In this document: piece by piece, positions 3,001 to 55,023 of the stretch
How positions within the stretch are numbered: position 1 is the stretch's first letter
Layout: every line of letters starts with the position of its first letter
DNA from: Minisyncoccota bacterium
GTDB lineage: Bacteria > Patescibacteriota > Minisyncoccia > Phycocordibacterales > PALSA-1337
Direction: 5' to 3'
DNA length: 64,000 nucleotides
Assembly: GCA_041665325.1 (NCBI GenBank)
Contig: JBAYJB010000003.1
Location: forward strand, 1,502 to 65,501
Notes under the pieces: model-generated
What the model was told of the DNA's origin: nothing
The model's database searches: none
Seen by the model: only the letters and a program-made list of their open reading frames with translations
Made by a program: the position numbers and the translations under genes

Positions 3001-6000
3001 CGTGAGGGTGGAATTGGTGGAAGCGAGACCGACGGATGTGACCGTACCTAGGTTGGTACCGACACAAGTGCCATTCACAGCAAAGCATCCCGATGCCAAG
3101 TTGATGCCGCCGGTAGACGAGAAGGTCGAGGTGGCTGTCGAGAAGTTGATGCCGTTGGTGTTGCCGACCGAGAGGAGCGAGCCGGGTGTGGTGGTGCCGA
3201 TGCCGACACTGCCGCCCAAAGTCGCTAGGTAAGCAGAACCTGTCGAAGTGAAAGCTGTGGAGGAAGCATATGTGAAGCTATTCAATCCCGTGAATGAGTT
3301 GTTATCAGCAAGCAGCGTCGAGGAGGCGGCCCCGGCGAGCGAGGTGAGGTATCCGGCATCATTCGTCCACTGCGAGATATTCGGTGTAGTGAAAAGTCCT
3401 GGGGAAAGCTTCTGATAGACGAGGGACGCACCGGTCGATTGGAGGACGGTTGAAGAAGCGCCTACTGCATTGAGACCGGTACCGCCATACAAGGGGTAAA
3501 TCGTGGAAGCGGCCGAAACTACCCCGTCCACGGCCTGCAAGGGACCGGTCAAGGCGGCTAGAGTGAGATTGGCTGTGGTGATTGTGCCAGCGAAGTATGC
3601 GTTCCCAGTCGTCGTCGCACCGCCATTGATCGTCAGACCGCCAGCTTGCGTACCATCACCAATAGTAGAGGAGGCATTGACCATGATGCCGATCGTCGTC
3701 GTCGGAGCCAGAGCGCCGAAGGCATTGATCTCCCATGATTTGCCAAATGAGCTTCCGCTTCCGGAACCGCAATTGACTCCGGTCGAAGTCAGGAATCCGC
3801 CGGCACCGAACTGGGCACAGCCGGCGGCGGCAGTCGAAAGACCAAATGAAGAAACTAAGAGATTTGGTAGCGACGAAGTAGCCGTACTGGTGGCAGTGAA
3901 GTATCCGGCCAGAGCATTCGTGCCGAGATCGCTATCGCCATAGACCGACAAGCTGCGCCATGGAGAGGTCGTGCCGAAGCCAACATTGCCGCTAAGATAT
4001 GATGTCTGGGTATTTGGATCGAACCAGAACTTGGCGGATGTCGTAGAGTTCGCTCCGATCGCCACGATATCGGTGCTGTTGTTCGGATAGTTGACGAACT
4101 GGCCGGCTACCGAGGAAGTGGTCGTAGACCAGGTGCCGCTCGAGCCACCGCCGGCACCACAAGGAGAACCCGATGAAGTGACGATGCCGGCCGAGGTCTG
4201 CAGACAACCATCGGTGAGTCCGGTGAATCTCACTGTACCTGTAGCTGTGAGACTGGCGAGTGCTAGGTTGCCGGAGAACAGAGCATCGCCTTGGATGGAG
4301 AGAAGGCGGGATGGTGAAGTGGTACCGATGCCTACTAGGCCGGTAGTCTTTATCCTGAGCTTTTCTGCACCAAAACCACCGGCAACTAAGATGGCGTCAC
4401 CACTATATGTTCCTATCTCTCCGCCTGAATTGCCAAGGTACGTGCCATTCGCAAAGACTGACGAGGCCGTTATATTGCCATTGACATCCAGCTTGGTTGT
4501 TGGATTCTTCCCTATCCCAACATTGCCTGCGAAGTATGCGTTCCCGGTCGTCGTCGCACCGCCATTGATAGTCAGTCCACCGGTCTGTGTGCCATCACCG
4601 ATAGTCGAAGACGCGTAAGCAGTCAGTCCCCCGTTGAATTGGGTAAGAGTAGATGTGGCGTTGCCGGTGAGACTAAATGGGTATGCGAATGTTGAAGTGA
4701 GATAACCCGCATCATTGGTCCACTGGGAAATGTTTGATGTCGTGAATAGTCCGGGCGAGAGCTTCTGATACACGAGTGATGTGCCGTTCGACTGGAGGAT
4801 GGTAGAAGAGGCGCCGATGCCTGTGAGGCCGGTACCGCCGTTGCCGATGCCGACCGTCCCGGACAAGTATGCTGTGGTATCAACTGACAATGCGCCGGTG
4901 CCACCGGAAGTCCGGACCAGACCGTTGGAAGTGAGGTTGGAGAGCGTGGAAATATTCTGGGAAGCGTTGACTGTGACATTGCCGCTGCTGTAAGTCAGTC
5001 CAGTACCATAAGTGGTAGTCGCGGTCCAGGTCGGAACGCCATTCAAGAAGGCGAGGATGTTGCCGGCCGTACCCGCCGTAGTCGTCGCGAGGGCGCCGCT
5101 GCCATTGCCATATAGTAGAGTGCCGGCGCTGATCGCAGACCAGCCCGTGCCGCCGTTCCCCACTCCCAGGATGCCGGCCAAGGTCAGTAAGCCGGAAGTC
5201 GTCACCGGCCCGCCAGAGAATGAGAGGCCGGTCGTGCCGCCGGAAGCATTGACGGAGGTGACCGTGCCATTGGTGCCGCCGATACAGACGCCGTTGATGG
5301 CGAAACATCCGCCGTAAGGGAGGTTGACCCCGGCTAGCGTGGAGGTCGCCGTCGTCGAAGCGCTCACAGCGGAGATGAACGAGGCGAAAGTCGAAGTGCC
5401 CAAATCGCCTACGATGCTAGTAGTAGCCGTCCCCCCCACGGAGATGCCGTTGTATGCCGAGAAAGAGGTCGAGGAAGCGGAGCGGAATTGCTGGAGGCCA
5501 GTCCAAATATTGGAATTGCCCAGGTTGAGGCCGGCTACGACCACGCCGGTGGTCGGAGAGATTGTCAGGGTGCCGTCTGGGTTAGCCGAGACCGACGATA
5601 CGGCTCCGCCGCCGGCGCTGTTCGTAATACAGTTGCCATCGACACCCCGGAAACATCCGCCGGAGAGCTGGATGCCGTTCGCGAAAGTCGAAGTGGCGTT
5701 GGTGGCGGTGATATTGAGCGCGCTGGCTTGGATGCCGGCGGCAAAAGTAGAAGTTGCAGTCGAGGTGGCGATGAGATAACCGATCGTGAGCGATGGTGTG
5801 CCGGTAGCGGCCAGACGCGTGCCATCGTATTGGAGGAGCGCGCCGGTGATGATGGAAGTCGTGTCCAAGCCGAGTGTGCCTGTGGTGGAGATGACGCCGC
5901 CTGTCAGTCCGTTGTTGGTGGCGATCGAGGTAACCGTACCGGATCCGGAGATGCCGAGCGAGCTCGTAGCCAGGAGATCGTAGGTGCCGGCACTGTTGCC

Positions 6001-7308
6001 CACGAGCAGTTTGCCGTAAGTCGGAGCCGAGGAGGTGCCGGTGCCGCCGTTGTCGAGATCGAGTATGCCGGAGAGCGTCAACGTGCCGGAGCTCGTCACC
6101 GGTCCGCCGGAGAATGAAAGGCCGGTCGTGCCGCCGGAAGCGTCGAGCGAAGTGACCGAACCAGAACCGCCTCCTCCTACACTCAATCCGCTGATCGCCT
6201 TGGAGATGCTCCAGCCGATGCTATCGCTCAAGGCGATGTTCTGCGTCATCTGCAGACGCTGGAAGATATTCAGCTGATTGGAGAGATCAGAGACTTGGTT
6301 CCGTAGGTCGTTGAGCTCGGCGCTCGATGCACCAGTGGCGCCGTTGGTGACGACGATGGTCTGCGGCGTCGTATTGCCGCCATATCCAAAGAATTGGTTG
6401 TAGACGGTCCGCGGGATAGACGGTGTCTCGTCGGGAGCCGAGACGATGACCGTCTGGCCTCCTGATAGATCGAGCCAGCGACGGACGGCATCCACCACGA
6501 CGACGCTGGTAGCTCTCCACCAATCTCCGATCGCAAACGGAACATCTGATATTGCCGCGGTATTGTCCTGAAGATTATCTCGCGTGATACTCTGCACGAT
6601 GTTCTGCGTGCGGTCTCTCATGCCAAGCGCACCACCGATCTCATGCCAGGTCAGTTGCGACATCGTCCGCGACAGCGCCGCGAAACTTTCGTCGGCCTTG
6701 AGGACGGCTGATGCTGTCGTCTCCACGACAGCGGCAACCGTTCCACGAATCTGATCAGAGTAAGAAGCGAATACCGAACCGGCACCGATCACTACGACGG
6801 CGGCTGTGACCGCCATCGCCGTACCTATCTTATGCTTCAGCGGAGATACGATCCTTCTCTGCACTCCAGGAACAAGAAGCTTTTCGGTAGCGGCCTTCTC
6901 GATCGTCGGGAGGAGCGGTCTGGCATCATCGCTATACTTCACTGCGGGCCCTCCATCCGGATAGCTGAAACTCCACACAATAGGAGGTATGGCTACCGGC
7001 GCTGCTGGAACTGACGGAACTTGATTTACAACAACAGCCGGAATCGCCTCTGCCGCAGGTTTCGCGCTTTCCGATGACTTTGTTGCAACACTCCTATTAT
7101 GACCATTTCGCGAATGGACTTTTTCCGCCCCATTCTTGTATGTGATCAAGGCATCCTGATCAACAAACCAAATGCGTCCTGTCATCTGTGCCGGCACCTT
7201 TCCACCACGACAGAGTTGCCCGATGTAATCGGCTGAATACTTGGTCATCTCGGAAGCTCGGGCAACCGAGATATACATTTTTCCATCTACGACGAGCTGT
7301 CCTTTCAT
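1..7308 (-). CDS. Giant repetitive surface/adhesin-like protein, partial (C-terminus beyond window start). N-terminal HTH-like segment, then one TM helix, then a >2,200-aa Gly/Thr/Ser-rich extracellular region with LVIVD-type repeats and duplicated modules.
   Basis: Only reading frame without stops from 7308 down to 1; every listed minus-strand ORF here lies in the other two frames. My own translation from the ATG (complement of 7306-7308) gives MKGQLVVDGKMYISVARASEMTKY... then a TM segment IGTAMAVTAAVVVIGAGSVFASY, then repeats such as GIGTTTP, LSGNVGIGTTSP and LEIVDVSNPAAPVHKGK...VFVSGNYAYV. An alternative start is the in-frame Met 10 codons downstream (~7278). Confidence 0.75.
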   Translation of the reverse strand, partial: MKGQLVVDGKMYISVARASEMTKYSADYIGQLCRGGKVPAQMTGRIWFVDQDALITYKNGAEKVHSRNGHNRSVATKSSESAKPAAEAIPAVVVNQVPSVPAAPVAIPPIVWSFSYPDGGPAVKYSDDARPLLPTIEKAATEKLLVPGVQRRIVSPLKHKIGTAMAVTAAVVVIGAGSVFASYSDQIRGTVAAVVETTASAVLKADESFAALSRTMSQLTWHEIGGALGMRDRTQNIVQSITRDNLQDNTAAISDVPFAIGDWWRATSVVVVDAVRRWLDLSGGQTVIVSAPDETPSIPRTVYNQFFGYGGNTTPQTIVVTNGATGASSAELNDLRNQVSDLSNQLNIFQRLQMTQNIALSDSIGWSISKAISGLSVGGGGSGSVTSLDASGGTTGLSFSGGPVTSSGTLTLSGILDLDNGGTGTSSAPTYGKLLVGNSAGTYDLLATSSLGISGSGTVTSIATNNGLTGGVISTTGTLGLDTTSIITGALLQYDGTRLAATGTPSLTIGYLIATSTATSTFAAGIQASALNITATNATSTFANGIQLSGGCFRGVDGNCITNSAGGGAVSSVSANPDGTLTISPTTGVVVAGLNLGNSNIWTGLQQFRSASSTSFSAYNGISVGGTATTSIVGDLGTSTFASFISAVSASTTATSTLAGVNLPYGGCFAINGVCIGGTNGTVTSVNASGGTTGLSFSGGPVTTSGLLTLAGILGVGNGGTGWSAISAGTLLYGNGSGALATTTAGTAGNILAFLNGVPTWTATTTYGTGLTYSSGNVTVNASQNISTLSNLTSNGLVRTSGGTGALSVDTTAYLSGTVGIGNGGTGLTGIGASSTILQSNGTSLVYQKLSPGLFTTSNISQWTNDAGYLTSTFAYPFSLTGNATSTLTQFNGGLTAYASSTIGDGTQTGGLTINGGATTTGNAYFAGNVGIGKNPTTKLDVNGNITASSVFANGTYLGNSGGEIGTYSGDAILVAGGFGAEKLRIKTTGLVGIGTTSPSRLLSIQGDALFSGNLALASLTATGTVRFTGLTDGCLQTSAGIVTSSGSPCGAGGGSSGTWSTTTSSVAGQFVNYPNNSTDIVAIGANSTTSAKFWFDPNTQTSYLSGNVGFGTTSPWRSLSVYGDSDLGTNALAGYFTATSTATSSLPNLLVSSFGLSTAAAGCAQFGAGGFLTSTGVNCGSGSGSSFGKSWEINAFGALAPTTTIGIMVNASSTIGDGTQAGGLTINGGATTTGNAYFAGTITTANLTLAALTGPLQAVDGVVSAASTIYPLYGGTGLNAVGASSTVLQSTGASLVYQKLSPGLFTTPNISQWTNDAGYLTSLAGAASSTLLADNNSFTGLNSFTYASSTAFTSTGSAYLATLGGSVGIGTTTPGSLLSVGNTNGINFSTATSTFSSTGGINLASGCFAVNGTCVGTNLGTVTSVGLASTNSTLTIGSSPITSSGNITVDLNLATANIWTGLQQFKNASSTQLSVYGPAYFGATATSTFTSAGWLGIGTSTPYAKLSIAGTAGQTNPYLAIATSSTAGAAPFFYIASSTGFTLDGGVVNPTHVGRLLNGGGSAPYLDVGKGVFVSGNYAYIAVYGGTGAGALEIVDISDPRNPVHKGSLLDGVGGAVLYYPSGIFVSGNYAYITRGTIFGDQGLEIVDVSNPAKPVHKGSINDTQVPAISGANGVFVSGNYAYVIATGGVLVVIDVSDPANPRHAGSSLDAGGGGSGTSVFVSGNYAYVTATPFGDDYLGIIDISNPSNPINAGQILDGAGGADINSPSSVFVSGKYAYIASEGGNALEIVDISNPAAPAHKGKIIHGSGGANLSNPSSVFVSGNYAYVTASGNNALEIVDVSNPAAPVHKGKILAGEGGAVLTTPRSVFVSGNYAYIATLDGSFVGALEIVDVGAGNISNIAIGNARIDTLQVGNLAQFNQGLFVHDGLNVGTNAMIGGALTVSGISSTTASNQNPVSALFLGGRVGIGTTTPYSRMSIWGSGTGSNRLFEITNSASTTLASFLENGTGYFAGSIGIGTTTPGSLLSIGNTNGINFSTATSTFSSTGGINLASGCFAINGTCVGTNLGTVTSVGLSSTNSTLSIGSSPITSSGTITVDLNLATANIWTGLQQFARASSTMLSVYGPAYFGATATSTFTSTGWLGIGTSTPYAALSVVGASGVVADKYFATSTTATSTFAGGVSFTNGSFENYTSGVTSISNLLTGNFNFETNAGNVSWVDLPVTSAAPAGTVESYAAQIGGVPLLTLYSESDGVGSTKARRVAIGTSTPYATLTIWASSTPENIFQVVSSASSTLAVINSIGNLGLGTTSPFSKFSVQGNALFSGDLSLAGLTATGTVTLSGLSGGLVKSTAGVLSAAIAGTDYVAPSSLFGKSWEIDASGALAPTTTIGIMVNASSTIGDGTQAGGLTISGGATTTGTLQVSGTGTSTFAGFI
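40..190 (-). repeat. Intragenic module B (IMVNASSTIGDGTQAGGLTI(N/S)GGATTTGNAYFAG). Further copies at ~3615-3765 and ~4525-4620.
   Basis: Near-identical nucleotide stretches (...gtcgtcgtcgcaccgccattgat.gtcag.ccacc.g..tg.g..ccatcaccgatagt.ga.ga.gc...) at the three locations. The shadow ORFs 2..214, 3503..3943 and 4091..4618 share VVVAPP..V.PP.CVPSPIVE.A. Confidence 0.65.
830..1270 (-). repeat. Intragenic duplicated module A, copy 1 (~440 bp, roughly 85-90% identical to copy 2 at 2790-3230).
   Basis: Nucleotide alignment by eye of 841-1270 against 2800-3230. The plus-strand shadow ORFs 986..1528 and 2894..3232 translate nearly identically (MLAVARLRSTVM...), which reflects the duplication. Confidence 0.7.
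1660..2700 (-). repeat. About seven tandem ~150-bp (about 50-aa) LVIVD-like beta-propeller repeats inside the giant CDS.
   Basis: The string catagttgccggagacgaagac (reverse complement encodes VFVSGNYAYV) recurs near 1681, 1841, 2121, 2261, 2421 and 2571, with a variant near 1975. Translated units read L(E/D)IVD(V/I)S(N/D)P..P..(H/K)(K/A)G...G.. VFVSGNYAYV. Confidence 0.7.
2790..3230 (-). repeat. Intragenic duplicated module A, copy 2. It flanks the LVIVD block on the other side.
   Basis: See copy 1. Both encode ...NGINFSTATSTFSSTGGINLASGCFA(V/I)NGTCVGTNLGTVTSVGL..TNSTL.IGSSPITSSG.ITVDLNLATANIWTGLQQF... Confidence 0.7.
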
Positions 7309-7887: not shown

Positions 7888-9312
7888 ATGACAAATAACG
7901 AGTACATAGCTACCATAGGTCTAGAGATCCACGCCGAATTAAAAACAGCCACAAAGATGTTCTGCGGCTGTAAGAATAACCCCGATGAAGAGAGGCCTAA
8001 CATCAATATCTGCCCTATTTGCCTAGGTCATCCAGGGACATTGCCGGTCTTGAACAAGGAGGCCATCAAACATGTGCTCAAAGTCGGCATCGCCCTCGAT
8101 GGGACATTGGCCGACTTCACCGAGTGGGACCGTAAGAATTACTTCTACCCTGACATCCCCAAGGGCTATCAGATCAGCCAATACAAATATCCACTAGTGA
8201 CTGACGGCAAGCTTGCCGGCGTCGCGCTCGAGCGCATCCACTTGGAGGAAGACACCGCGCAGTCCACGCACGATACGCACGACAAGAGTCTCATCAACTT
8301 CAACCGCTCCGGCGTACCGCTCATGGAGCTCGTGACCAAGCCGGTCATCCACGATGCCGTGACGGCCGTGACTTTCGCCAAGGAGCTGCAACTCCTCCTA
8401 CGCGCGCTCAGCGTCGGCGATGCCAACATGGAGAAGGGCGAGATGCGCGTCGAGGCCAACATCTCTGTTGCATCCCCCACTGACACTGCGGCCGGTAGAT
8501 TCGGCACGAAGACCGAGGTCAAGAATCTCAACTCATTCCGTTCGGTCGAACGCGCGATCGCCTACGAGCTCGACAGGCAGATGAGACTCCTCGAAGCCGG
8601 AGAGAAGGTCGTCCAGGAGACGCGTGGCTGGGATGACGCAAAGAGCGAGACATACTCGCAGAGGAGCAAAGAGAGTTCGCATGACTATCGCTATTTCCCC
8701 GAGCCGGATATCCCGAAGCTCAAGATCTCGGAGATCGCGGAATTTTCCGCGGCCGCTCTCAAGAAAGAAATTCCCGAACTCCCCTGGATCAAGCGCGACC
8801 GATTCAAAAAAGATTACGCCATGACCGACAAGGAGGCGGCGGTCTTCGTCGACTCCCCTGCCTTGGCGGATTACTTTACATCCATAATCAGTAGTTACAA
8901 AACAGACACTAAGAAGATAAAACTGACGATTAATTATTTACTGAACACTCCATTGAAGGAGATCGACACGAAGCCGATAGACATATCGTATGTCGTGGAG
9001 CTTGTCGGCATGGTTGATTCCGGAGAGATCTCTTCATCTGCCGCAAAGGATATAATCGCCATGCTCCATGAGCACCCGGGCAGATCTCCGAGGGAGATAG
9101 CTATAGGAAACAACCTCCTCCAACAGAACTCTGCCGCGGATCTCATTCCTGCCATCGAGAAAGTCCTCACAGACAATGCCGGTGTGGTCAGCGAATATAG
9201 AGGCGGCAAGACAGCTTCCCTGCAGTTCCTGATCGGTCAGGCCATGAAAGCGACAAAAGGGGCTGCGAACCCCGAGATAGTTAAAAAACTATTAGTCGAG
9301 AAGCTAGGCTAG
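7888..9312 (+). CDS. gatB: Asp-tRNA(Asn)/Glu-tRNA(Gln) amidotransferase subunit B.
   Basis: N-terminus YIATIGLEIHAELKTATKMFCGCKNN...NINICPICLGHPGTLPVLN is the GatB signature. 474 aa. Confidence 0.93.
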   Translation: MTNNEYIATIGLEIHAELKTATKMFCGCKNNPDEERPNINICPICLGHPGTLPVLNKEAIKHVLKVGIALDGTLADFTEWDRKNYFYPDIPKGYQISQYKYPLVTDGKLAGVALERIHLEEDTAQSTHDTHDKSLINFNRSGVPLMELVTKPVIHDAVTAVTFAKELQLLLRALSVGDANMEKGEMRVEANISVASPTDTAAGRFGTKTEVKNLNSFRSVERAIAYELDRQMRLLEAGEKVVQETRGWDDAKSETYSQRSKESSHDYRYFPEPDIPKLKISEIAEFSAAALKKEIPELPWIKRDRFKKDYAMTDKEAAVFVDSPALADYFTSIISSYKTDTKKIKLTINYLLNTPLKEIDTKPIDISYVVELVGMVDSGEISSSAAKDIIAMLHEHPGRSPREIAIGNNLLQQNSAADLIPAIEKVLTDNAGVVSEYRGGKTASLQFLIGQAMKATKGAANPEIVKKLLVEKLG

Positions 9313-10272
9313 GGCCTTCACGATCGCTTCTCCGAGCTTCTTGACCGCCGCATCATCTAGGACACTCACTTCGAGGATGTCCTTTCCGAGCTTTTCGAGC
9401 GATCTGCGGGCCGCCAAGGTCGTCTGCTCATCACAAAGGTCAGTCTTGGTCAGCAAAATGAGCTCTTTCTTGTCTGTCAGGCTCTCTCCATACTTCTCGA
9501 GCTCCTTGCGGACGACCTCGTAAGCTTCCAAAACATTGATATTCTCTAATGACACCAGGTGCAAGAGTATCTTGGTCTTCTTGATATGGCGCAGGAACTT
9601 GTGGCCAAGCCCCTTCCCTTCCGAGGCCCCCTCGATCAATCCAGGAAGGTCCGCCAGAATGTATCCGCCCGGGAGGGCGCCGAGGTTGGGGTCGAGTGTG
9701 GTGAATGCATAGCTCCCGACCTTGGCACCGGCGGATGTGAGCGCATTGAGCAAGCTGGATTTGCCGGCATTCGGCAGGCCGATCAAGCCGACATCAGCGA
9801 TCAGAGATAGCTCCACCTTGAAATCAGCCTCATCGCCAGGCAGGCCGGGAGTAGACTGTTCCGGCCGGATGTTGGTCGAGGCCTTGAAGTGTTCATTGCC
9901 CAAGCCACCCTTGCCGCCGTGAAGGATCTTGGCAGTCTCCCCTTCCTGGGTCAGCTCGATGACCCTCTTGGTGTTGGTATTGGTGATGACCGAACCGATC
10001 GGTAGCTCGATGTAGCGGTCCTCTCCCGATCCGCCCTGCCGGCTGAAGTTCGCTCCGGCCTCGCCGTGACCGGCCTCGAAGCTCTTGACCGACTTGTGAC
10101 GGGCTAGGATGTTGATGTCACGCACAGCGCGCACATAGACGTCGCCGCCCTTACCGCCGTTGCCGCCGCCCGGCCCGGAATATTCCTTGCTCTTCTCGTG
10201 GCGCCAACGGACCACGCCGGCCCCGCCGTTGCCGGCTTTCGCATAAAAAGCTATTTCATCGATGAGAGCCAT
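9304..10272 (-). CDS. obg: GTPase Obg/CgtA.
   Basis: Gly-rich Obg fold (FYAKAGNGGAGVVRWRHEK...GPGGGNGGKGGDVYV) followed by a GTPase domain (GLPNAGKSSLLNALT...DLPGLIEGA). Confidence 0.9.
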   Translation of the reverse strand: MALIDEIAFYAKAGNGGAGVVRWRHEKSKEYSGPGGGNGGKGGDVYVRAVRDINILARHKSVKSFEAGHGEAGANFSRQGGSGEDRYIELPIGSVITNTNTKRVIELTQEGETAKILHGGKGGLGNEHFKASTNIRPEQSTPGLPGDEADFKVELSLIADVGLIGLPNAGKSSLLNALTSAGAKVGSYAFTTLDPNLGALPGGYILADLPGLIEGASEGKGLGHKFLRHIKKTKILLHLVSLENINVLEAYEVVRKELEKYGESLTDKKELILLTKTDLCDEQTTLAARRSLEKLGKDILEVSVLDDAAVKKLGEAIVKALA

Positions 10273-10278
10273 GTAGTT

Positions 10279-11331
10279 TTAGTTGCGGCGCAGGGCCAGA
10301 GTCTTGTATATGTCAAGCAAGGCAAAGAGGAAAGCCAGGACCAGCGGCCCAAGAACGAAGCCGATCACCCCGAAGAGGGTGAGGCCGCCGAAGACCGAGA
10401 GGAGGACGAGGAGCGGATGGACCCGGGCTCCACGGCTGACGAAGAGCGGTCCGAGGAGGTTGTCGACGAGTCCGACGGCGATGAGGCTCCAGATGAGGAG
10501 ACCGACGGCATGGGGTGTCGAACCGGTGATAAACATATAGATGATACCTGGGATGAGGACAAGTGATGTACCGATGCCGGGGATGAGAGCTGCCACAGCG
10601 GCCACCGATCCCCAGACTGCCGGATTGGGCACACTGAAGATGGCAAAGCCGACGCCAGTCATGATCCCCTGGATGATCCCGATGGCGATCGAGCCGCCGA
10701 AGATGGCATATATAGTCTGGCGGAGCTTGTGCAGGACCTGCTCGTCATCGGCATCACCGAGCGGCGAGAGTTGGATGATCTGGCGCTTGAGCTCCTGCCC
10801 GTCACGTAGGAAATAGAAGAGTGACAAGAGCATGATGAATACGCCGATAGCCATGCGGGATAATCCATTGAAGACCACGTTGAGATTGTCGAACATCCAT
10901 TCCAGACCATGCGAAATGATGGTGGTGATATTGAAACTGTCGAATGATTGGGCCGGGTAGAGATCGAGGAAGATATGCGAGATCGAAGCCGAGACGCCAT
11001 TTAAGGCCGAGATAGTCTCCGAACGGCCGGACTCGTCTATCAGATAGGCATACATATTCTGGACTTCTACGTATATCTGGCCGGAGATGAGTAGGAGCGG
11101 CACAAGGACGATGACCACCACGACGATGATGGTGAGGAGGGCGGCCAAACTGCTCTTGGGCTTGCCGCCGAAGAAGAGACGGGTGATCCACCTGTACAGC
11201 GGTCCCGATACGACCGCGAGCGCGGCCGCGAGGACGATCGAAGTCAGGAATGGCAGGAACATGACCACGGCCAGGGCGATGACCGCGAGGAGGAGGCCGA
11301 AGAAGAAGTGATTCTTGGACTGTGAAGTCAT
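10279..11331 (-). CDS. AI-2E family (UPF0118/PerM-like) membrane transporter.
   Basis: 350-aa polytopic membrane protein with typical AI-2E family architecture and motifs (…IFGGSIAIGIIQGIMTGVGF…). Confidence 0.75.
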   Translation of the reverse strand: MTSQSKNHFFFGLLLAVIALAVVMFLPFLTSIVLAAALAVVSGPLYRWITRLFFGGKPKSSLAALLTIIVVVVIVLVPLLLISGQIYVEVQNMYAYLIDESGRSETISALNGVSASISHIFLDLYPAQSFDSFNITTIISHGLEWMFDNLNVVFNGLSRMAIGVFIMLLSLFYFLRDGQELKRQIIQLSPLGDADDEQVLHKLRQTIYAIFGGSIAIGIIQGIMTGVGFAIFSVPNPAVWGSVAAVAALIPGIGTSLVLIPGIIYMFITGSTPHAVGLLIWSLIAVGLVDNLLGPLFVSRGARVHPLLVLLSVFGGLTLFGVIGFVLGPLVLAFLFALLDIYKTLALRRN

Positions 11332-12016: not shown

Positions 12017-14677
12017 TCACTTCAAGGAAGTTGACGGAAGTGATAGACGCCGGTGTTCTTCCGTATCGAGCGCGCCACACTTCTTGAATTTTTTACCGCT
12101 GCCACAAGGACAAGGGTCGTTGCGTCCCGGGCCATCCGCCGAACCAGCGCCGACGCGTACTGCCGCCTTACCGGAACCATCACCCAGAGTGATATCCTGC
12201 GCATTCTTCTGCACTTCGTTTAGGTCGGATTTCTCGGCCTTAGCCGGTACCCCATTCTGGACAGGCACGATATTCGGCAGGATGCGGGCGAATTGTCCAC
12301 GCATAGCGGCTTGCATCTCCTTGTAGAGACGCAGACCTTCCTTCTTGTATTCAACAAGCGGATCCCTCTGGCCATAGGCACGGAGGTTGACGCTCGAACG
12401 GGTGTAATCCATGACTTCGAGGTGCTCCACCCAATACATATCCATCGTCTGGAGGAGGATGATCCTCACGGCAGCCAGGAATGATTCGCGGCCGAATTCA
12501 CCGACTTTCTTCGTGACCACGGTCTGTGCTTCGACGTCACCTTCGGTCACCATCGTAAGCTGGGCTTCAACTTCATCGAGCGAACCCACCAAGAGAGCGC
12601 GGCGATCCTTGTACACCGTGGTGCGCTGATGGTTGATGACATCGTCGAATTCGAGGACATGTTTGCGCGAGTCGAAGTTGAAACCTTCGATCTTCTGTTG
12701 GGCGCTCTCGAGCGATTTGGAGATCATACCGTGCTCGATCGGCTCATCTTCTGGCATGCCGAGCTTGGTCATCATGGACTTGAGCATGTCGGAAGCAAAG
12801 ACGCGCATCAGCTGGTCCTCGAGCGACACATAGAACTGCGTCTCCCCCGGATCGCCCTGGCGGCCGGAGCGGCCGCGCAACTGGTCGTCGATGCGCCGAG
12901 CTTCGTGGCGCTCGGTGCCGAGGACGAAGAGGCCGCCGGTCCCGCGAACTTCGTCGTATGACTCCGGAGTGTTGGGCGAACCGCCGAGCTTGACGTCTAC
13001 GCCACGACCGGCCATGTTGGTGGCGATGGTCACGGCCCCCTTCTTGCCTGCTTGAGCGACGGTCTCACCCTCGCGCTCGGCGTATTCCGGCTTGGCATTC
13101 AAGATAGTATGCGGGATGCCTTCAGACTTGAGGAATGACGACAGGAGCTCATTCTTCTCGATCGAGACTGTGCCGATCAAGACCGGCTGACCCTTGGCAT
13201 GGAGCTCCTTGACCTTCCTCGAGATGGCCTTGAACTTGCCATGCTCGGTGCGGAAGATCTGATCATTGCGGTCGGCGCGGACCATCGGCCGATTGGTCGG
13301 CACGGTGTAGACATCGAGGCCATAGACCTTGAAGAATTCTTCGGCGGAAGTAGCCGCCGTGCCGGTCATGCCGGACAGCTTCGGGAACATGCGGAAGAAG
13401 TTCTGATAGGTGATCGAAGCATAAGTGCGAGACTCCTGCTGGACTGCGACACCTTCTTTGGCTTCGATGGCCTGATGCAAACCCTCAGACCATCGGCGAC
13501 CGGGCTGGAGGCGCCCGGTGAATTCGTCGACGATGATGATCTCATTGCCTTTGACCACATACTCTTTGTCCTTGTGATATAGGGCCTTGGCGCGGATAGC
13601 GGTCTCCAGATGGTGGACAGACTTGATACCCTTGTCGGTGTAGATATTGTCGATGCTCAGGGCCTGCTCGGCCTTGGTGATGCCGGCTTGCGTCAGAGCG
13701 ATGCCCTTATGTTTCTCATCTACAGTATAGTCGGCCTCCTGTTCGAAGCGACCGACGAGCGTGGCGAACTGCTTGTAAGTGCTCTCGGCATCGCGCATCG
13801 GCGCCGAGATGATGAGCGGCGTGCGCGCCTCATCGATCAAGATCGAGTCGATCTCATCGACGACGGCGTAGTTGAACGGCCGCTGGCGCAGACGGTCGGG
13901 CGCGTACTCCAGGTTGTCGCGCAGATAATCGAAACCGAACTCAACGTTGGTGCCATAGGTGATATCGGCTTCGTAGGCCTCACGGCGCGAGATCGGGCGC
14001 AGGAATTCATGGACGACCTTGAATGAACCTAGGAGGTCGCGCTCTTTATCGAGAGTATCGGTCTGGCTTCCTCCCGGGGACAACAGTACATCCGCTCGCT
14101 CGTCGCTAGCTCCTCCTCGCGGAGTACTGTTCTCCTCTACGGGAGCAGTAATGTGTTTCGAGTCATAGATGAAGCTCGACTCGTGGTTGACGACGGCGAC
14201 CGTGAGGCCGAGGGCGTCGTAGATCTGCCCCATCCAAGTAGCATCGCGGCGGGAGAGGTAGTCGTTGACCGTGACAAGATGCGCACCCTTACCGGTCAGG
14301 GCATTGAGGTATAGAGGGAGCGTCGCCACTAAGGTCTTGCCTTCACCGGTCTTCATCTCGGCGATACCGCCGCTATTCAAGACCATGCCGCCGATGAGCT
14401 GGACGTCGAAGTGTCTCTGACCGAGGGTGCGGCGAGAAGCCTCGCGCACTACAGCGAAGGCCTCAGGAAGGATCTCAGCGAGGATGCGGGCCTCATCTTC
14501 CTTACTCCCGTTCCCCTGCTTCAGACGCTCCTTGAACTCAGCAGTCTTAGCCTTGAGGTCGGCATCCGAGAGCGCCTTCGTGGCCGGCTCAAAAGCATTG
14601 ATCTTGGCGACCAACGGCTCGAATTTCTTGACATTCTGGGTGTGCTGGCCACCCATGAGCTTGGCGAAAAATGACAT
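12017..14677 (-). CDS. secA: Preprotein translocase ATPase SecA. It carries a ~60-aa insertion that includes a palindromic element.
   Basis: MSFFAKLMGG...KFEPLVAKINAFEP start, DEAD motor motifs, ...AYEADITYGTNVEFGFDYLRDN, and a C-terminal zinc motif CPCGSGKKFKKC. I place the start at the Met 21 codons into the listed ORF. Confidence 0.93.
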   Translation of the reverse strand: MSFFAKLMGGQHTQNVKKFEPLVAKINAFEPATKALSDADLKAKTAEFKERLKQGNGSKEDEARILAEILPEAFAVVREASRRTLGQRHFDVQLIGGMVLNSGGIAEMKTGEGKTLVATLPLYLNALTGKGAHLVTVNDYLSRRDATWMGQIYDALGLTVAVVNHESSFIYDSKHITAPVEENSTPRGGASDERADVLLSPGGSQTDTLDKERDLLGSFKVVHEFLRPISRREAYEADITYGTNVEFGFDYLRDNLEYAPDRLRQRPFNYAVVDEIDSILIDEARTPLIISAPMRDAESTYKQFATLVGRFEQEADYTVDEKHKGIALTQAGITKAEQALSIDNIYTDKGIKSVHHLETAIRAKALYHKDKEYVVKGNEIIIVDEFTGRLQPGRRWSEGLHQAIEAKEGVAVQQESRTYASITYQNFFRMFPKLSGMTGTAATSAEEFFKVYGLDVYTVPTNRPMVRADRNDQIFRTEHGKFKAISRKVKELHAKGQPVLIGTVSIEKNELLSSFLKSEGIPHTILNAKPEYAEREGETVAQAGKKGAVTIATNMAGRGVDVKLGGSPNTPESYDEVRGTGGLFVLGTERHEARRIDDQLRGRSGRQGDPGETQFYVSLEDQLMRVFASDMLKSMMTKLGMPEDEPIEHGMISKSLESAQQKIEGFNFDSRKHVLEFDDVINHQRTTVYKDRRALLVGSLDEVEAQLTMVTEGDVEAQTVVTKKVGEFGRESFLAAVRIILLQTMDMYWVEHLEVMDYTRSSVNLRAYGQRDPLVEYKKEGLRLYKEMQAAMRGQFARILPNIVPVQNGVPAKAEKSDLNEVQKNAQDITLGDGSGKAAVRVGAGSADGPGRNDPCPCGSGKKFKKCGALDTEEHRRLSLPSTSLK
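14071..14148. repeat. ~75-bp imperfect palindromic element, copy 1, embedded in-frame in secA (second copy at 47226-47305).
   Basis: ctcccggggACAACAGTACATCCGCTCGCTCGTCgctagcTCCTCCTCGCGGAGTACTGTTCTCctctacgggag. The arms GACAACAGTACATCCGC and GCGGAGTACTGTTCTC are reverse complements. The second copy is >85% identical outside a short central segment. Confidence 0.75.
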
Positions 14678-14724
14678 ATGTGGAGCCACTCTATCACATT
14701 TGGCCCTAACGGGCCATGAATTTG

Positions 14725-15750
14725 CTAATTCACCCACTCCACTTCGCCGGTCACTTCCACTCCGGTCTTCTCCTTGACTCTGTTCATCAATTCTTGGGCC
14801 AGGTTGACTACGTCGGCGGCAGTCGATCCGGGCTTGGCCACGATGACCAAGGCCTGCTTCTCATAGACGCATACGCCGTCGAGGCAGAGATCTTTGGCGT
14901 GGCAGACATTGTCCAGGATCCAGCCGAGTGAGAGCTTGATGCGGCCGTCGGGCTCCGGATATCCGGGAAGATCGGGATACGCCTTCTTGAGCTCATGCCA
15001 CTTGTCGATGGTGATGGTCGGATTCTTGAAGAACGACCCTGCTGTACCCCAAAGCTTCCAATCCGGCAGCTTGTGCCAGCGGATATCGATGACGGCCGCG
15101 CGGATATCCCGCGGCGTCGGGTTCGCGACCGGCGGCGTCTTGCGCTTGAAATAGTCATCGACATCGCGATATCTGGTATTGACCTCTCCCTTAGCGCTCA
15201 AAGAAAAATTCACGCGGGTGATGACATAACGGGCGCGGTCTTCCTTGAAAACCGAATCACGGTAGGCAAAATGGCAATCTTGATTGTTGAGCTCGCGATA
15301 TTGTGAGGTCTGGCGGTCGAGGACGCGTACCGACACGATCGTGTCGGAAGCTTCCGTGCCGTAGGCGCCGATGTTCTGCACCGGCGCGGCGCCAACCGTG
15401 CCGGGAATGGCCGAGAGATTCTCCAAGCCATAGAGGCCGCGCTCAACGGTCTCCTCGACTAGCTCATCCCACATCTCACCGGCCGCGGCCGAGACGATCG
15501 TCCTATCCCCTTCGGTCCGGTATGTGACGCCGCGAAGCTCGATCTTGATGACGAGGCCAGGGAATCCCTTGTCGGAGATGAGGATATTTGACCCGCCGCC
15601 TAGAATGAAGACGCGCAGCTTCTTCTCGCTCGCGAAGGCCAGAGCCTTGAGCAATTCATCCTCGGTCGAAACATGACAAAAAAAGCGGGCTGATCCCCCG
15701 ATTTTGAATGTCGTATATTGTGCCAAAGCGACGTTTTCCTGAATATTCAT
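14725..15750 (-). CDS. murB: UDP-N-acetylenolpyruvoylglucosamine reductase.
   Basis: MNIQENVALAQYTTFKIGGSARFF...FILGGGSNIL is the FAD-binding MurB signature. Start placed at Met14 of the listed ORF. Confidence 0.88.
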   Translation of the reverse strand: MNIQENVALAQYTTFKIGGSARFFCHVSTEDELLKALAFASEKKLRVFILGGGSNILISDKGFPGLVIKIELRGVTYRTEGDRTIVSAAAGEMWDELVEETVERGLYGLENLSAIPGTVGAAPVQNIGAYGTEASDTIVSVRVLDRQTSQYRELNNQDCHFAYRDSVFKEDRARYVITRVNFSLSAKGEVNTRYRDVDDYFKRKTPPVANPTPRDIRAAVIDIRWHKLPDWKLWGTAGSFFKNPTITIDKWHELKKAYPDLPGYPEPDGRIKLSLGWILDNVCHAKDLCLDGVCVYEKQALVIVAKPGSTAADVVNLAQELMNRVKEKTGVEVTGEVEWVN

Positions 15751-15765
15751 ATGTTTGTACCAACT

Positions 15766-15826
15766 GACGGCGACGGGTGCGAGCTCCAAATATAATGTCT
15801 ATAATGTGAGTACAGCCGTCGCCGTC
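15766..15826. promoter_or_regulatory. Perfect 11-bp GC-rich inverted repeat (GACGGCGACGG ... CCGTCGCCGTC) enclosing a 39-nt AT-rich loop with two tandem TATAATGT boxes.
   Basis: Seen in sequence between the murB start and the stop of the upstream O-antigen-ligase-like gene: gacggcgacgggtgcgagctccaaaTATAATGTcTATAATGTgagtacagccgtcgccgtc. Confidence 0.4.
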
Positions 15827-15889
15827 ACTTGGTGCAATCTACTCTCATTATATGCTCGGTTCCGGAATCCGCAAGTATGACGCTCCATG

Positions 15890-15916
15890 ACGCAAAAGGC
15901 CGCCAGAGGCGGCACT
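15890..15916 (-). terminator. Possible intrinsic terminator for the minus-strand gene ending at 16041.
   Basis: Reverse complement reads gtgccgcctctggcggccttttgcg: a GC stem followed by CTTTTGC. Confidence 0.25.
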
Positions 15917-16040
15917 TTGCGTAGACATTTTTGGAGAGTGCCCACACTGGGTACTCACCAAGACAATATAGCATAAATGACCATAAAAAGCAAGTCTCGT
16001 CTGTCGATAGACAGTGGATAACCGATCCCCTGTCTTGCCC

Positions 16041-18224
16041 TTATTTCTGGATCTCCTTGATGGACGCATCTATCTGATCCTTGTATTCCGGATGATCCTT
16101 GGCGATCTGTCGGAGCGTAGCCACGGCCGCCGAGAGCTGTCCGGCGGTATATTGGGCTTGGGCCAGCTGGATAGCGGCGCCGGCATTCTTGGGGTCGATC
16201 TTCAGGAGGGCTTGGTATATGTCCAAGGCCTTGGAATAGTCCTTGACTGCCATGTAAGCCTGGGCGACCTGCGGCGACTGGAAGATCCCCGTATCGTCCG
16301 CAAACATCTGACGGGCCGCGGCGTCTTTGCCAGCGATGATGAGAGCCACAACATAAGTACTCTTGACCGACACATTATCCGGTGCCGCGTCATATGCAGC
16401 CTTCAGGATATCGACGGCCTCGGCGGCTTTGCCGGAGTTGATGAGACTGATGCCCAACTGGAGACTGATCGACTGTTTGGCTGGCGAGAGCTCATGCGCC
16501 GTCTGTAGCAGAGCGACCGCAGCTGCCGATTGGTTGACGACATTCAGGAATGATCCGCCGAGAGTGTAGATGCGGGCGTCCTTCATGGGCGTAGCGGCGA
16601 TCTGATCCGTGATGGCTTTGTTCGCCAGATCGTAGAAAGCCTGCTTGGTAGGACCGGGGACCTGTTGGTTGCCGATGACGCCGCTCGCGCAAGACAAGAG
16701 CTGTTCACGGATCTCCTGATTGGCTGTGTAGACGTCGATGGCTAGAACCTTCTCGAAAAGAGCGACATCCGGCTGTGAGCCGCAAGCTTGGAGCGCCCTG
16801 ATGAGACCGGTGTTGGCCTTGATCACCCGGACATTGAGGAAATAGATGCCGAAGATAAGGACGATGATGATGACAGGTAGGGCGACATATTCGACAGCTT
16901 CGACGGGCATCGGCTTGTCACCGATCATCTTGATCGGACGGCCTGGGCGCAGAGAGTCAGCGAACCCGAGCGCCGTGAAGAACAGGACGTAACTAGCCAG
17001 GTTGTCGAAGACGAAGATGTTGTGGACGGCATAGCCGGCCAAGAGGCCAGTGAGGATGCTCTTCTCCCCGACAGTGAGTGAGGATCTCCAGATCGAGAAA
17101 AGGAATAGGATATATAGAGACAGGTAGGCGAGCAATCCGACGATACCCGAAGCGGTCAGCCAATCGAGGAAGACACTGTGGGCGCGGTCGAACCATTGCT
17201 CCTGATTCCACATCTTTGGTTCATAATTGGCGTTGAAGATGTAGTTGAAATTCTCCTGACCCCAGCCCAAGATCGGACGCTCGGCAAAGCCCTTCACGGC
17301 CATCGGCCAGATATAGCCGCGGGCTTGAGTCTTGTTCTCTTCCCAGGAGATCGAGGCCATGCGCTGTAAGGTCTCGTTATTCTGGATGAACGGCTGATGA
17401 CGATTGGCCCAGAATACCAAGCTGACCAAGACGATGAGAGCGACGCCGCCTAGAGCCACACCGCGCGACTTCCTGGACTCCTTCTTGCCAAAGACGACAT
17501 ACAGGAGAAGGGCCAAGACAGCGCCGCCTACGAGACCGAGGATCGTGCCGCGGGTAGAAGTCTCGAAGACTTCAAAGGCGAACAGAAGCGCGAGGATCAG
17601 GTATGCCCAGCGCAAAAAAGAGGCATTATTGATCTGCCGAGCTTTGGCCACGAGGAACATGTAAGCGGCCAAGCCGGCATTCCAGAGCATGTATACGGCC
17701 ATGTATGCGGCGTTGCCGAGAGAGGCATCGATACGAGAAGACCCTTGGTGGATGGCTGCCCAACCAAAGAACTGGAAGAGACCGTAGATGCCGACGATGA
17801 GGGCGATGAAGAGCTCGACATTCAAGAATCGATGCCACATCCGCTTCCCCTCTTCGCCGGAACCGAAGATATTGGTAGTGACGAGGAAGAAGGCGCCGAG
17901 GTGAGCGATAGTGAGCCATCCCTCCATACGCTCGAAGTTGGACCAGATGCTACGAAGCGGGTTGACGCCCAGGAGATCGGCGGCCAAAGTGACTAGAGTG
18001 AAGATGCCGATGCCGATCGTGAGCGGCGTCCACTTGGGCCGATACTTGGCGTCGAGGAAAGCTAGGATGAGCCAGGCGGCCAGAGCGACCTCTACGAGGA
18101 TCCTGAAATAGAAAGCCTTGCCGGTGATGAACGGGAAGAAAAAAGGATTAGCGATGATGAGGGGGAAAACTGGGACAAGGAAGATAGCGGCTAGGGCGAG
18201 GAAGCGAGCGGTTTTTTTGATCAT
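16041..18224 (-). CDS. O-antigen ligase/polymerase-family (Wzy_C-like) polytopic membrane protein with a C-terminal TPR-repeat domain.
   Basis: ~12 predicted TM helices with a large periplasmic loop (…RGTILGLVGGAVLALLLY…) typical of the WaaL/Wzy family. The C-terminal ~300 aa form Ala-rich TPR-like repeats. Start placed at MIKKTARF, Met29 of the listed ORF (the listed ORF begins at TTG). Confidence 0.7.
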   Translation of the reverse strand: MIKKTARFLALAAIFLVPVFPLIIANPFFFPFITGKAFYFRILVEVALAAWLILAFLDAKYRPKWTPLTIGIGIFTLVTLAADLLGVNPLRSIWSNFERMEGWLTIAHLGAFFLVTTNIFGSGEEGKRMWHRFLNVELFIALIVGIYGLFQFFGWAAIHQGSSRIDASLGNAAYMAVYMLWNAGLAAYMFLVAKARQINNASFLRWAYLILALLFAFEVFETSTRGTILGLVGGAVLALLLYVVFGKKESRKSRGVALGGVALIVLVSLVFWANRHQPFIQNNETLQRMASISWEENKTQARGYIWPMAVKGFAERPILGWGQENFNYIFNANYEPKMWNQEQWFDRAHSVFLDWLTASGIVGLLAYLSLYILFLFSIWRSSLTVGEKSILTGLLAGYAVHNIFVFDNLASYVLFFTALGFADSLRPGRPIKMIGDKPMPVEAVEYVALPVIIIVLIFGIYFLNVRVIKANTGLIRALQACGSQPDVALFEKVLAIDVYTANQEIREQLLSCASGVIGNQQVPGPTKQAFYDLANKAITDQIAATPMKDARIYTLGGSFLNVVNQSAAAVALLQTAHELSPAKQSISLQLGISLINSGKAAEAVDILKAAYDAAPDNVSVKSTYVVALIIAGKDAAARQMFADDTGIFQSPQVAQAYMAVKDYSKALDIYQALLKIDPKNAGAAIQLAQAQYTAGQLSAAVATLRQIAKDHPEYKDQIDASIKEIQK

Positions 18225-18301: not shown

Positions 18302-19126
18302 ATGTCAACGGCCGTCACCGTCATCCGCCCCAAGCGGTTATTCCACCTCGCCGACCTCAAGGAACTCTGGAATTACCGGGAGCTTTTGTATTTCTTCAGC
18401 TGGCGGGACCTCAAGGTACGCTACAAGCAGACAGCGATCGGCGTCCTCTGGTCGGTCCTACAGCCCTTCATCACTATGGTGGTGTTCTCGTTCTTCTTCG
18501 GCAAGCTCGTCCAGGTGCCGTCTGACGGAGTGCCCTATCCGATCTTCGTGTACACCGGCCTCCTATTCTGGCAATTCTTTTCCGACTCCTTGAATGAGAC
18601 CAGCAACTGTCTCCTGGCCAACAAAGCCATCGTCACCAAGATATACTTCCCGCGACTGATCCTGCCGATCTCTTCTGTACTGACCAAGCTCGTGGACTTC
18701 GCGATCGCCGCGGTCATCATGATCGGTCTCATGTTCTACTATGGATATGTGCCAAGTTGGGGCGGCCTACTCATGCTGCCGCTCTTACTCGTCCTGACAT
18801 TCATGGCCGCGGTCGGGCTCGGCCTCGTCCTGGCTTCGATCAACGTCAAATATCGCGATGTGCGCTACGCCCTGCCCTTCTTCATCCAGATACTACTCTT
18901 CGTCACGCCGGTCATATATCCGGCATCGCTCGCCGGAAGCTATTCGAAGTTTCTGGCCTTGAACCCGATGATGGGCGTGATCCAGAGCGCCCGCGCGGCT
19001 CTCCTCGGCACTACACCGATCAACTGGACGCTCATCCTGACTTCGGCGATCGGCGGACTCATCCTGCTAGGCATCGGCTTGGTCTACTTCAAGAAAACAG
19101 AGAGGTACTTCGCAGATATCATATAG
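18302..19126 (+). CDS. wzm: ABC-2 type polysaccharide export permease (Wzm/TagG/KpsM family).
   Basis: LWNYRELLYFFSWRDLKVRYKQTAIGVLWSVLQPF is the ABC-2 permease signature. Six TM segments, 274 aa. Confidence 0.85.
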   Translation: MSTAVTVIRPKRLFHLADLKELWNYRELLYFFSWRDLKVRYKQTAIGVLWSVLQPFITMVVFSFFFGKLVQVPSDGVPYPIFVYTGLLFWQFFSDSLNETSNCLLANKAIVTKIYFPRLILPISSVLTKLVDFAIAAVIMIGLMFYYGYVPSWGGLLMLPLLLVLTFMAAVGLGLVLASINVKYRDVRYALPFFIQILLFVTPVIYPASLAGSYSKFLALNPMMGVIQSARAALLGTTPINWTLILTSAIGGLILLGIGLVYFKKTERYFADII

Positions 19127-51900: not shown

Positions 51901-53064
51901 TCAAGAGATATCGGCCAGGATGTCCTTCATGTTAGCGGCGATGTTCGCCCAACCATACTTCTCCTCGACCAGCTCTCTGGCGCGCCCGACGACATAATCT
52001 CGCGACTCCCGATCCTTGGCTAGTTTCTCAGCTTTCTGGGCGATGGACTTAGGGTTGCCGACTTCGCAGAAGAAGCCCGTCTCGCCGTCCGTCAGGAAGT
52101 CTGGGATACCACCGACCGGCGTGGCGATGACCGGGATACCGGCCGCCATAGCCTCCAGGAATGAATTGCCGAGGCCCTCGGAGCGCGACGGTCTGACAAA
52201 GATGTCAGAAATCTGCAGATATTGCGGCAGATTTTCGTGCGATACGAAGCCCTTGAATACAACTCGGCCATCAAGCTTCAAGTCACGAATCTGGGTCCGC
52301 AAAGCTGATTCGTCATGGCCCGTTCCGATATTCAGGAACTTATATGGAGTGTCCAGATGTCTTAGAGATGAGATGATGTCGTCGACGGCGTTCTTGTATA
52401 CCATGCGGCCGGCCGTCACAAGCACGATGTCTTGGTCGGTGAAGCCGAGCTCCCTGCGCAAGGCCGATTTGCGCTCCGGCGCGAGCGGCGCAGAGAAGTG
52501 CTCGTAGTCAACACCGTTCGGGATGACCACAACCGGGCATACTGCTCCCATGTGGCGCGACCAATCAGCCAGATAATTCGAGATCGTCTGGATATGGTTC
52601 GCTGCCGCAAAAATCTTCCGAAACCAGGGCGAGAGGACTCCTTCACGGCGTTTGAAATGGTCGCCCTCCTGGATGGTCAGGAATATCGGAACCTTCGGTT
52701 GCTTCTTCTTGAAAAGATAGGCGGCATATCCGGCATAGCTCGCCATGATGGCCCAGACCGCATCGTATCTTTCCACACGGTGGAGTCGTCGAGCTTTGGC
52801 AGAGGCGACAAATGGAAAAAATAGCTTTTGGAATATGCCGACATCATCGAAGACACGGAAGATCCTCACATTGCCGATCTGTTCTTCCCTCTTACCGCGG
52901 CCGTCGCCCAGAGTGATCATATCGAACTGCATCTCGTTTTTTGAGATACGATCAGTGATCTCCTTCACGGCGACTTCCGCCCCGCCGATGAGGAGGGGGT
53001 AGTAAGATAATGAGAATATCAGGACTCGGCGTGGCTTCATGCTTTCATACTTCCATACCTTCAC
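51901..53064 (-). CDS. GT4-family glycosyltransferase.
   Basis: VLIFSLSYYPLLIGGAEVAV... and SEGLGNSFLEAMAAGIPVIATPVGG. 4-nt overlap with the upstream gene. Confidence 0.75.
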   Translation of the reverse strand: MKVWKYESMKPRRVLIFSLSYYPLLIGGAEVAVKEITDRISKNEMQFDMITLGDGRGKREEQIGNVRIFRVFDDVGIFQKLFFPFVASAKARRLHRVERYDAVWAIMASYAGYAAYLFKKKQPKVPIFLTIQEGDHFKRREGVLSPWFRKIFAAANHIQTISNYLADWSRHMGAVCPVVVIPNGVDYEHFSAPLAPERKSALRRELGFTDQDIVLVTAGRMVYKNAVDDIISSLRHLDTPYKFLNIGTGHDESALRTQIRDLKLDGRVVFKGFVSHENLPQYLQISDIFVRPSRSEGLGNSFLEAMAAGIPVIATPVGGIPDFLTDGETGFFCEVGNPKSIAQKAEKLAKDRESRDYVVGRARELVEEKYGWANIAANMKDILADIS

Positions 53065-54902: not shown

Positions 54903-54935
54903 AGAAGATGCTATTTCAGGACAATTATATCATAG

Positions 54936-54974: not shown

Positions 54975-55023
54975 TTGAGCGATATCCTCGATATCGCGTG
55001 TGTTGAGTGTTGCGGTGCCTGAG

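Follow-up and report, generated by a model that had tools for sequence, protein, structure and literature searches.

Rickettsia palindromic elements (RPEs) are palindromic repeats that lie in-frame within genes, each family encoding one conserved peptide in one frame (review PMC10969869; after Ogata et al. 2000). Together with the intragenic copies of repetitive extragenic palindromes (REPs; PMC3733652), in-frame RPEs (PMC10969869) provide a documented precedent for translated repeat DNA in bacteria. Here we describe a hairpin repeat of about 90 nucleotides (nt) that is present in four copies in a 64 kb stretch of contig JBAYJB010000003.1 from a Minisyncoccota bacterium (hereafter the window), and three of these copies are translated through in-frame within intact genes, including the essential gene secA. 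The behaviour of the element matches that of RPEs and of intragenic REPs and MITEs (miniature transposable elements with inverted repeats), and on the features compared it is not a member of any of those families. The repeat represents a new family within an established type, the ‘selfish DNA inside protein genes’ first described in Rickettsia, in a phylum without an earlier report; full-text searches of a paper library found no description of such elements in Patescibacteria.

Like the RPEs, the element is a dispersed, multi-copy palindromic repeat of around 100 nt that lies in-frame in housekeeping genes unrelated to one another, in a host-dependent bacterium with a small genome (PMC10969869). 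The host open reading frames (ORFs) are intact, the insert lies in a stretch compatible with the protein fold and copies also occur in spacers, as for RPEs (PMC10969869). The element differs in its length (80-105 nt here, shorter than RPE-1, against about 150 nt for RPEs), in having copies in several frames and both orientations where RPEs encode one conserved peptide, and in carrying a conserved internal-loop core flanked by covarying stems. It also belongs to another phylum (Patescibacteria, not Rickettsiales). An earlier note on this DNA had called the secA copy RPE-like, which is borne out for its behaviour (in-frame position, intact ORFs) and not for the single conserved frame, as three frames or orientations are used; the resemblance is one of behaviour and probably not of sequence. 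The candidate phyla radiation (CPR)-like host that the note proposed agrees with the SecA homologues, which come from Patescibacteria (Minisyncoccia, Paceibacterota and Taylorbacteria).

The four window copies, A to D, were detected with E values of 1e-21 to 1e-26 using a repeat scan and an nhmmer profile, and their coordinates were then sharpened with a covariance model, R1, built from seven members of the family after a terminal-motif search. No chance occurrences of the element's core pattern are expected. Copy A lies on the minus strand inside secA (14061-14150; nhmmer E 1e-22; R1 69.3 bits, E 8.5e-15). Both hairpin arms that had been placed inside the SecA ORF at 14071-14148 are present, GACAACAGTACATCCGC at 14079-14095 and GCGGAGTACTGTTCTC at 14119-14134, in a continuous minus-strand ORF with the translation ...ENSTPRGGASDERADVLLSPGGS.... 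We use ‘top’ for the purine-rich strand of the element that reads GCAGGCGAGAAC...GTTGTCGCCGAGAGG; in copy A this better-folding strand is the mRNA sense strand, the frame is GTA GAG GAG AAC and the encoded peptide is PVEENSTPRGGASDERADVLLSPGG. The proposed second copy at 47226-47305 is also real. Copy B (47215-47311, minus strand; nhmmer E 2e-26; R1 95.3 bits) lies inside a gene for a PMT_2-like membrane glycosyltransferase, again with the top strand as sense, in a frame different from that of copy A and encoding the peptide SCPQARTVLREEEDARRTSERMYCCRREGA. It shares identical blocks of 26 nt and 22 nt with copy A, where none is expected by chance (100 shuffles) and the host genes are unrelated.

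The earlier note had allowed that only these two copies might exist, and we found two more, both in the opposite orientation. Copy D (53482-53576, plus strand; nhmmer E 1.5e-21; R1 86.1 bits), the most diverged of the window copies, is located in the Pro-rich C-terminal tail of a DUF87/TrwB-like ATPase; with this host gene on the minus strand, the top strand has an antisense orientation relative to the host mRNA, and the peptide is PRPLGESSAPARSSPPAPPRATPLSPTNA. Copy C (57912-58005, plus strand; nhmmer E 1e-24; R1 81.5 bits) is intergenic. Two divergent genes flank it, one rsmI-like on the minus strand (start 57897) and one for an ATP-grasp protein on the plus strand (start 58021), and it takes up nearly the whole of their 123-nt spacer. 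There are no stop codons in any of the six frames of copy B and few in the other copies. The homologous unit is about 90-97 nt in the window copies and around 80-105 nt in the family overall, so the earlier description of a palindromic element was right in kind and too short in length (~75 bp).

The host genes are intact. secA (12017-14677, minus strand) encodes all five SecA Pfam domains, as recorded for the orthologue P0001, which is 94% identical to the window SecA, and it matches solved SecA structures. The mechanical ORF (12017-14737) begins at a GTG at 14737; the true start is probably the ATG at 14677 (MSFFAKLMGG...), as indicated by P0001 (886 aa) and by alignment with the solved structures. 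The copy B host is a 582-aa polytopic glycosyltransferase-like protein (46541-48289, minus strand) identical to P0121, and the copy D host is a 613-aa P-loop ATPase (53061-54902, minus strand) with weak DUF87 and TrwB_AAD_bind matches. Next to the latter, a 740-bp stretch without a called gene (54902-55643) holds a 196-aa mechanical ORF with no Pfam match and, at 55208-55244, a weak partial match to the left arm of the element (E 0.02-0.06), either a decayed half-copy or a chance match, which we did not count as a copy.

Copies A, B and D use three different frames or orientations and copy C is non-coding, hence the homology is at the level of DNA and not of the peptide. This bears on the idea of a shared peptide module, in which protein-level homology would reflect an insertion domain that has a function in SecA and in further proteins of the envelope. 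The frame GCA GGC GAG AAC (AGEN...LSP) is indeed common to the SecA copies of three species and to a giant ORF of one of the related species described below. The idea is contradicted by copy B in another frame, copy D on the opposite strand and the non-coding copy C; in addition the peptide is predicted to be disordered and has no homologue among 1.84 billion representative proteins. We consider a peptide module very improbable.

In comparison with related loci the coding copies appear as clean insertions. In the closest SecA from outside the species (P0002 at locus L118, 78% identical) exactly 75 nt are absent at the copy A site, and the empty site is not palindromic (minimum free energy, MFE, -2.2). 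The conspecific strain L117, from a different ENA sample, keeps copy A unchanged, with SecA 94% and DNA 98% identical. The segment is thus lineage-specific in the alignment of SecA orthologues, as had been expected. For the copy B and D hosts, homologues were taken from one combined three-protein query (18 matches) and filled and empty sites were compared at the protein level. Exactly at copy B, between two hydrophobic segments, 23 aa are absent from 17 of 17 retrievable homologues (39-44% identical), and the tail that carries copy D is absent from P0139, the sole homologue found.

These loci also recur in independent assemblies. ENA contig ERZ27249449 k141_1027373 (95.4 kb) matches the window at 100% identity, copy A is seen again in L117, and copy C is found in an independent JGI metagenome contig, Ga0265292_1038347 (L116), from a slightly different strain in which RsmI has three residue differences. 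That the second copy might be an assembly chimera had been raised in the earlier note, and the general caution due to metagenome-assembled contigs is all that speaks for an artefact of this type; with independent JGI and ENA assemblies carrying copies C and A it is excluded.

All members of the family share one architecture, here given for the top strand. A variable-sequence outer stem is followed by an unpaired GCA (or GTA), and then by a conserved helix, GGCGA/TCGCC, with an adjoining G.G mismatch (GAGAAC against GTTGTC). Inside this helix are an inner stem that varies and a loop rich in purines, which reads GAGGAGG in the window copies, and on the 3′ side an unpaired GAGA precedes closure of the outer stem. 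The core common to all members is GCA-GGCGAGAAC...GTTGTCGCC-GAGAGG, situated between covarying stems. The whole element is a single imperfect inverted repeat that forms one continuous hairpin, and its halves are not individually palindromic. Copies B and C have common termini, GTCGTGCCC...GGGCGCG. The GTAG motif is present in copies A and D only, the other copies having GCAG, and it sits in the internal bulge. A kink-turn reading of the internal loop was rejected by eye, as were translational-bypass (‘hop’) elements, inteins and introns, on the grounds of consensus misfit and of copies that are open in the frame used.

Folding confirmed the long hairpin. Against shuffled sequences the z-scores were -2.6 to -5.3 on the strand written in the earlier note and -3.6 to -7.5 on its complement. 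Covariation is strong: 10 of the 23 consensus pairs show changes on both sides and 96.8% of the cells are paired overall, values that none of 500 shuffles attained, and sliding the partners collapses the signal. Compensatory differences are seen even among paralogues of one genome, namely copy B versus copy C and the two copies at locus L123. In all seven members examined the top strand folds better. With RNA parameters its advantage is 2 kcal/mol for copy A and 11-16 kcal/mol for the remaining six members, and DNA parameters give 2-8 kcal/mol. This advantage arises because wobble pairs fall on the top strand (about 10 G.U cells versus 2 A.C cells).

Such features raise the possibility of a structured RNA that has a function, as a cis-regulatory hairpin or as a small RNA, with its structure under selection and its coding copies incidental or regulating translation of the host. 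The strong covariation, the confinement of G.U pairs to one strand that is always the better-folding one, and the conserved asymmetric internal loop are consistent with this, as are the direction of the top strand, which runs with the host or downstream gene in seven of eight members, and the position of copy C about 15 nt upstream of a start codon. Several observations argue the other way. Copies lie deep inside ORFs in differing frames, copy D is antisense to its host, and the contexts have nothing in common (a loop of an essential translocase, one of a glycosyltransferase, a Pro-rich tail and a divergent spacer). Rfam 15 gave no window matches at the gathering threshold and none even at E up to 10, the best score at copy C being 15.8 bits against a cut-off of 59. 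Neither a promoter-like site nor a terminator with a T-run was found at copy C; two terminator-like matches there are short stems in the element's own loop region without a clean T-run. Furthermore, the same covariation arises from palindromic DNA with no RNA function. A structured RNA therefore seems to us rather improbable.

The architecture also allows a closer comparison with the REPs and their paired form, REPINs, which make up the GTAG super-family mobilised by REP-associated tyrosine transposases (RAYTs). Shared features are G+C-rich hairpins, in some species intragenic and encoding 20-30 aa, a GTAG/GCAG motif beside a conserved stem, and strand-specific pairing that fits a single-stranded DNA (ssDNA) substrate (PMC3733652). 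REPs leave no target-site duplications (PMC3733652), and no consistent one was detected within 14 nt of the element core. In contrast to REPINs, which consist of two inverted 20-40-nt units that are each self-palindromic, the element is one long hairpin with non-palindromic halves; its GTAG-like motif is internal, in the bulge, and mostly GCAG, whereas REPs have an unpaired terminal GTAG; and three of its four copies lie inside genes, in contrast to the mainly extragenic REPs. The approximately 73 kb of this genome that we examined, comprising the window and 8.8 kb to its right, contains no RAYT gene.

With bacterial MITEs that have in-frame copies within genes (ERIC/RU, Correia and Nezha; PMC2759123, PMC2229807, PMC10969869) the element has in common its small, non-autonomous nature and inverted-repeat ends that fold into hairpins. 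As with them, copies lie between genes as well as within them, and host proteins can gain peptides from the insert (PMC2759123, PMC2229807, PMC10969869). MITEs are mobilised by a DDE transposase. It differs in being a palindrome throughout, whereas MITEs have terminal inverted repeats around a unique core, and no MITE-type target-site duplication or parent insertion sequence was identified in the window or the related loci compared. Integron attC sites were considered and rejected: the ends CGAGAAC...GTTGTCG misfit RYYYAAC...GTTRRRY (judged by eye), copies lie inside ORFs and there is no integrase in the window.

Using R1 we found four further members in three other Paceibacteria-like species, scoring 68-81 bits, in addition to the four in the window (three in unrelated ORFs and one intergenic). 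Those at loci L122 (SecA P0023) and L127 (P0080) occupy the same SecA loop as copy A in the same orientation and frame. The remaining two are at L123, one in the spacer between Wzy_C and MurB genes and one (L123-2) in-frame within a giant ORF (SAALAGEN...VLSPKE). The L122, L127 and L123-2 members have common termini, about GTCAGCCG...CGGTGTGAC. R1 detected no member in L118 or L124, nor in 59 kb of other relatives (L119 and L128-L130).

The distribution among SecA proteins points to turnover. Within the P0023 subclade, P0023, P0072 and P0080 have the element and P0040 lacks it, and in P0058 it is apparently decayed but recognisable, judged by eye from the shared peptide motif DLST...KTKRD. P0029, which is 92.6% identical to P0023 outside the loop, is without the inner 22 aa and has SAVLAG|DG, the translated ends of the element. 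This state is best read, from the protein sequences, as an internal deletion of the element; on such a model the DNA would read ...GTCAGCCGTCCT-GCAGG|GGACGGTG..., with the element ends kept around the deletion. Copy A itself resembles its paralogue B far more than it does the SecA copies of other species, and the site is empty in its nearest SecA relatives (80-82% identical), a pattern that fits either an independent, fairly recent insertion or concerted evolution.

Copies A, B and C form a mosaic in which the inner arms are common to A and B and the outer stem is common to B and C. This pattern is also what might be expected if the palindromes were not mobile and had been spread or homogenised by recombination or gene conversion among similar sequences already present, or had arisen locally by template-switching, that is the ‘recombinational hot-spot’ which the earlier note set beside a mobile MITE-like family. 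The lack of a transposase or target-site duplication, and the fixation of all copies in the strains at hand, would agree with this. However, the empty SecA site of L118 contains no palindrome that could seed conversion, the distribution is patchy among close SecA lineages, and a unit of about 100 nt with the L122-type termini recurs in unrelated genes of other species, namely SecA in L122 and L127 and the giant ORF in L123. We retain a non-mobile origin as an unlikely alternative, the mobile family being the better supported of the two proposals.

Taken with the intact host ORFs, the conserved core and the strand-biased pairing, a dispersed DNA repeat that is an insertion relative to orthologues and is patchily distributed is probably a family of small, non-autonomous palindromic mobile elements (MITE/REP/RPE-like), dispersed in this Paceibacteria/Minisyncoccia-like Patescibacterium and its relatives and surviving where read-through is tolerated. 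In the model we propose, the element would be copied as DNA to new sites by a trans-acting enzyme that recognises the conserved core, for which a candidate is a HUH/tyrosine transposase specific for single strands (RAYT or IS200/IS605 type; PMC3733652). We are led to this choice, our preferred but tentative guess, by the lack of any target duplication that we could detect, the strand asymmetry and the GTAG/GCAG motif beside the conserved helix. Only insertions of a multiple-of-three length that are stop-free and fall in permissive surface loops or tails would survive, and in the survivors the element would simply be translated as a disordered, charged segment of 23-25 aa, the peptide expected from read-through being for example ENSTPRGGASDER. 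The arms could remain complementary if propagation is restricted to copies able to form the hairpin, or via templated repair within the palindrome. Template-switch repair within palindromes is a known mechanism. Loss would occur via internal deletion.

A number of observations weigh against this model of a mobile family. No transposase of any kind is present in the window or the 8.8 kb to its right, there is no consistent direct repeat within 14 nt of the core on either side, and the ends of the element are not sharply defined; hence mobility is deduced from the distribution only. Every copy is fixed in the strains at hand, with no presence/absence polymorphism observed within the species, and the copies were counted in about 73 kb of the genome. 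Strand-asymmetric C-to-T mutation, instead of a single-stranded intermediate, could account for the strand bias in pairing. The subfamily is also rare in public data. A strict scan of JGI metagenomes matched the copy C locus only, six-frame peptides of the four copies matched only the hosts of A and B among 5.8 billion proteins, and the element peptides had no match in the representative set mentioned above. In two further scans, a search of genome contigs with the pattern CAGTN{3,6}CCNCTCGN{10,30}TCCTCCTCGCG gave 115 chance matches in high-GC genomes, none of them confirmed by nhmmer, so this pattern is too loose, and an arms-only pattern gave two identical chance matches without a hairpin in viral contigs.

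The SecA loop that contains copy A deserves separate consideration. As the earlier note had pointed out, it is much longer than in E. coli, with 67 residues in the window SecA against 8 in the E. coli protein (6s0k), and among 120 orthologues of the clade it spans 44-111 aa. In an AlphaFold2 model, which is modest overall (mean predicted local distance difference test score, pLDDT, of 67), residues 172-207, including the part encoded by the element, are predicted as coil with a pLDDT of 30-37. We checked eight long SecA loops at the DNA level and six of them contain long hairpins (the window, L122, L127, L123, L124 and L130). The hairpin in L124 (10550-10702) is about 130 nt, and L130 (10526-10702) has a double hairpin with an MFE of -90. 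Of the other two, the loop in L129 contains a 99-nt non-palindromic dispersed repeat that occurs twice in secA with 88% identity (10158-10256 and 10638-10736), and that in L128 consists of low-complexity direct repeats.

L123 carries a second, different palindromic family, GTCATTCCCGCGAAAGCGGGAATC..., which is translated as VIPAKAGIQ...LDSRFRGNDK and has six copies in 23 kb, all inside called ORFs. These are at 8996-9086, 10651-10736, 12393-12480, 15900-15986, 17967-18056 and 19050-19098, in MurB, SecA (twice), GatB and two other hosts; GatB is called as two ORFs in L123. The VIPAKAGIQ...LDSRFRGNDK signature is found in the SecA loop of four lineages (P0049, P0076, P0081 and P0090) whose nearest relatives are without it, implying repeated independent insertions. 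On this evidence unrelated hairpin elements have colonised one SecA surface loop repeatedly. A broader proposal, which we regard as possible and clearly speculative, is that an undescribed hairpin superfamily of Patescibacteria with the core GCA-GGCGA / TCGCC-GAGA, moved as ssDNA by some enzyme, would together with families of the GTCATTCCCGCGAAAGCGGGAATC type be a major source of the lineage-specific insertions typical of CPR proteins, with the SecA nucleotide-binding domain 1 (NBD1) loop as a recurrent landing pad.

The window has other features of note. At 15755-15837, directly upstream of the murB start, is an unrelated hairpin of about 85 nt (TTGCACCAAGTGACGGCGACGGCTG...CACCCGTCGCCGTCAGTTGGTACAA; MFE -42 to -46 kcal/mol, z -6 to -7). 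It is single-copy in the window and undetected by R1, and the equivalent Wzy_C/MurB spacer of L123 has a member of the element family instead. The minus strand at 1-7300 holds a very large, repetitive ORF that continues past the left end of the window; within it are tandem repeats of 147 nt (49 aa) and several further families of internal repeats, and its L117 orthologue is longer than 2365 aa and has no Pfam match. Between 24000 and 36000 the G+C content is 46-49%, compared with 52-58% elsewhere, over a cluster of glycan-modification genes that includes a sulfotransferase, FkbM methyltransferases, a Wzt-type ABC transporter, epimerases and a C-methyltransferase. This region may be a horizontally acquired envelope-glycan island.

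The genomes of CPR bacteria, or Patescibacteria, are tiny, and unexplained lineage-specific insertions are a known trait of their proteins and rRNAs. Our data indicate that at least some of these insertions, found in an essential gene, consist of palindromic repeat DNA that is translated, which provides a concrete and testable origin for insertions of this kind. For annotators and phylogeneticists there is a note of caution, in that the variable loops of CPR marker proteins can be derived from repeats.

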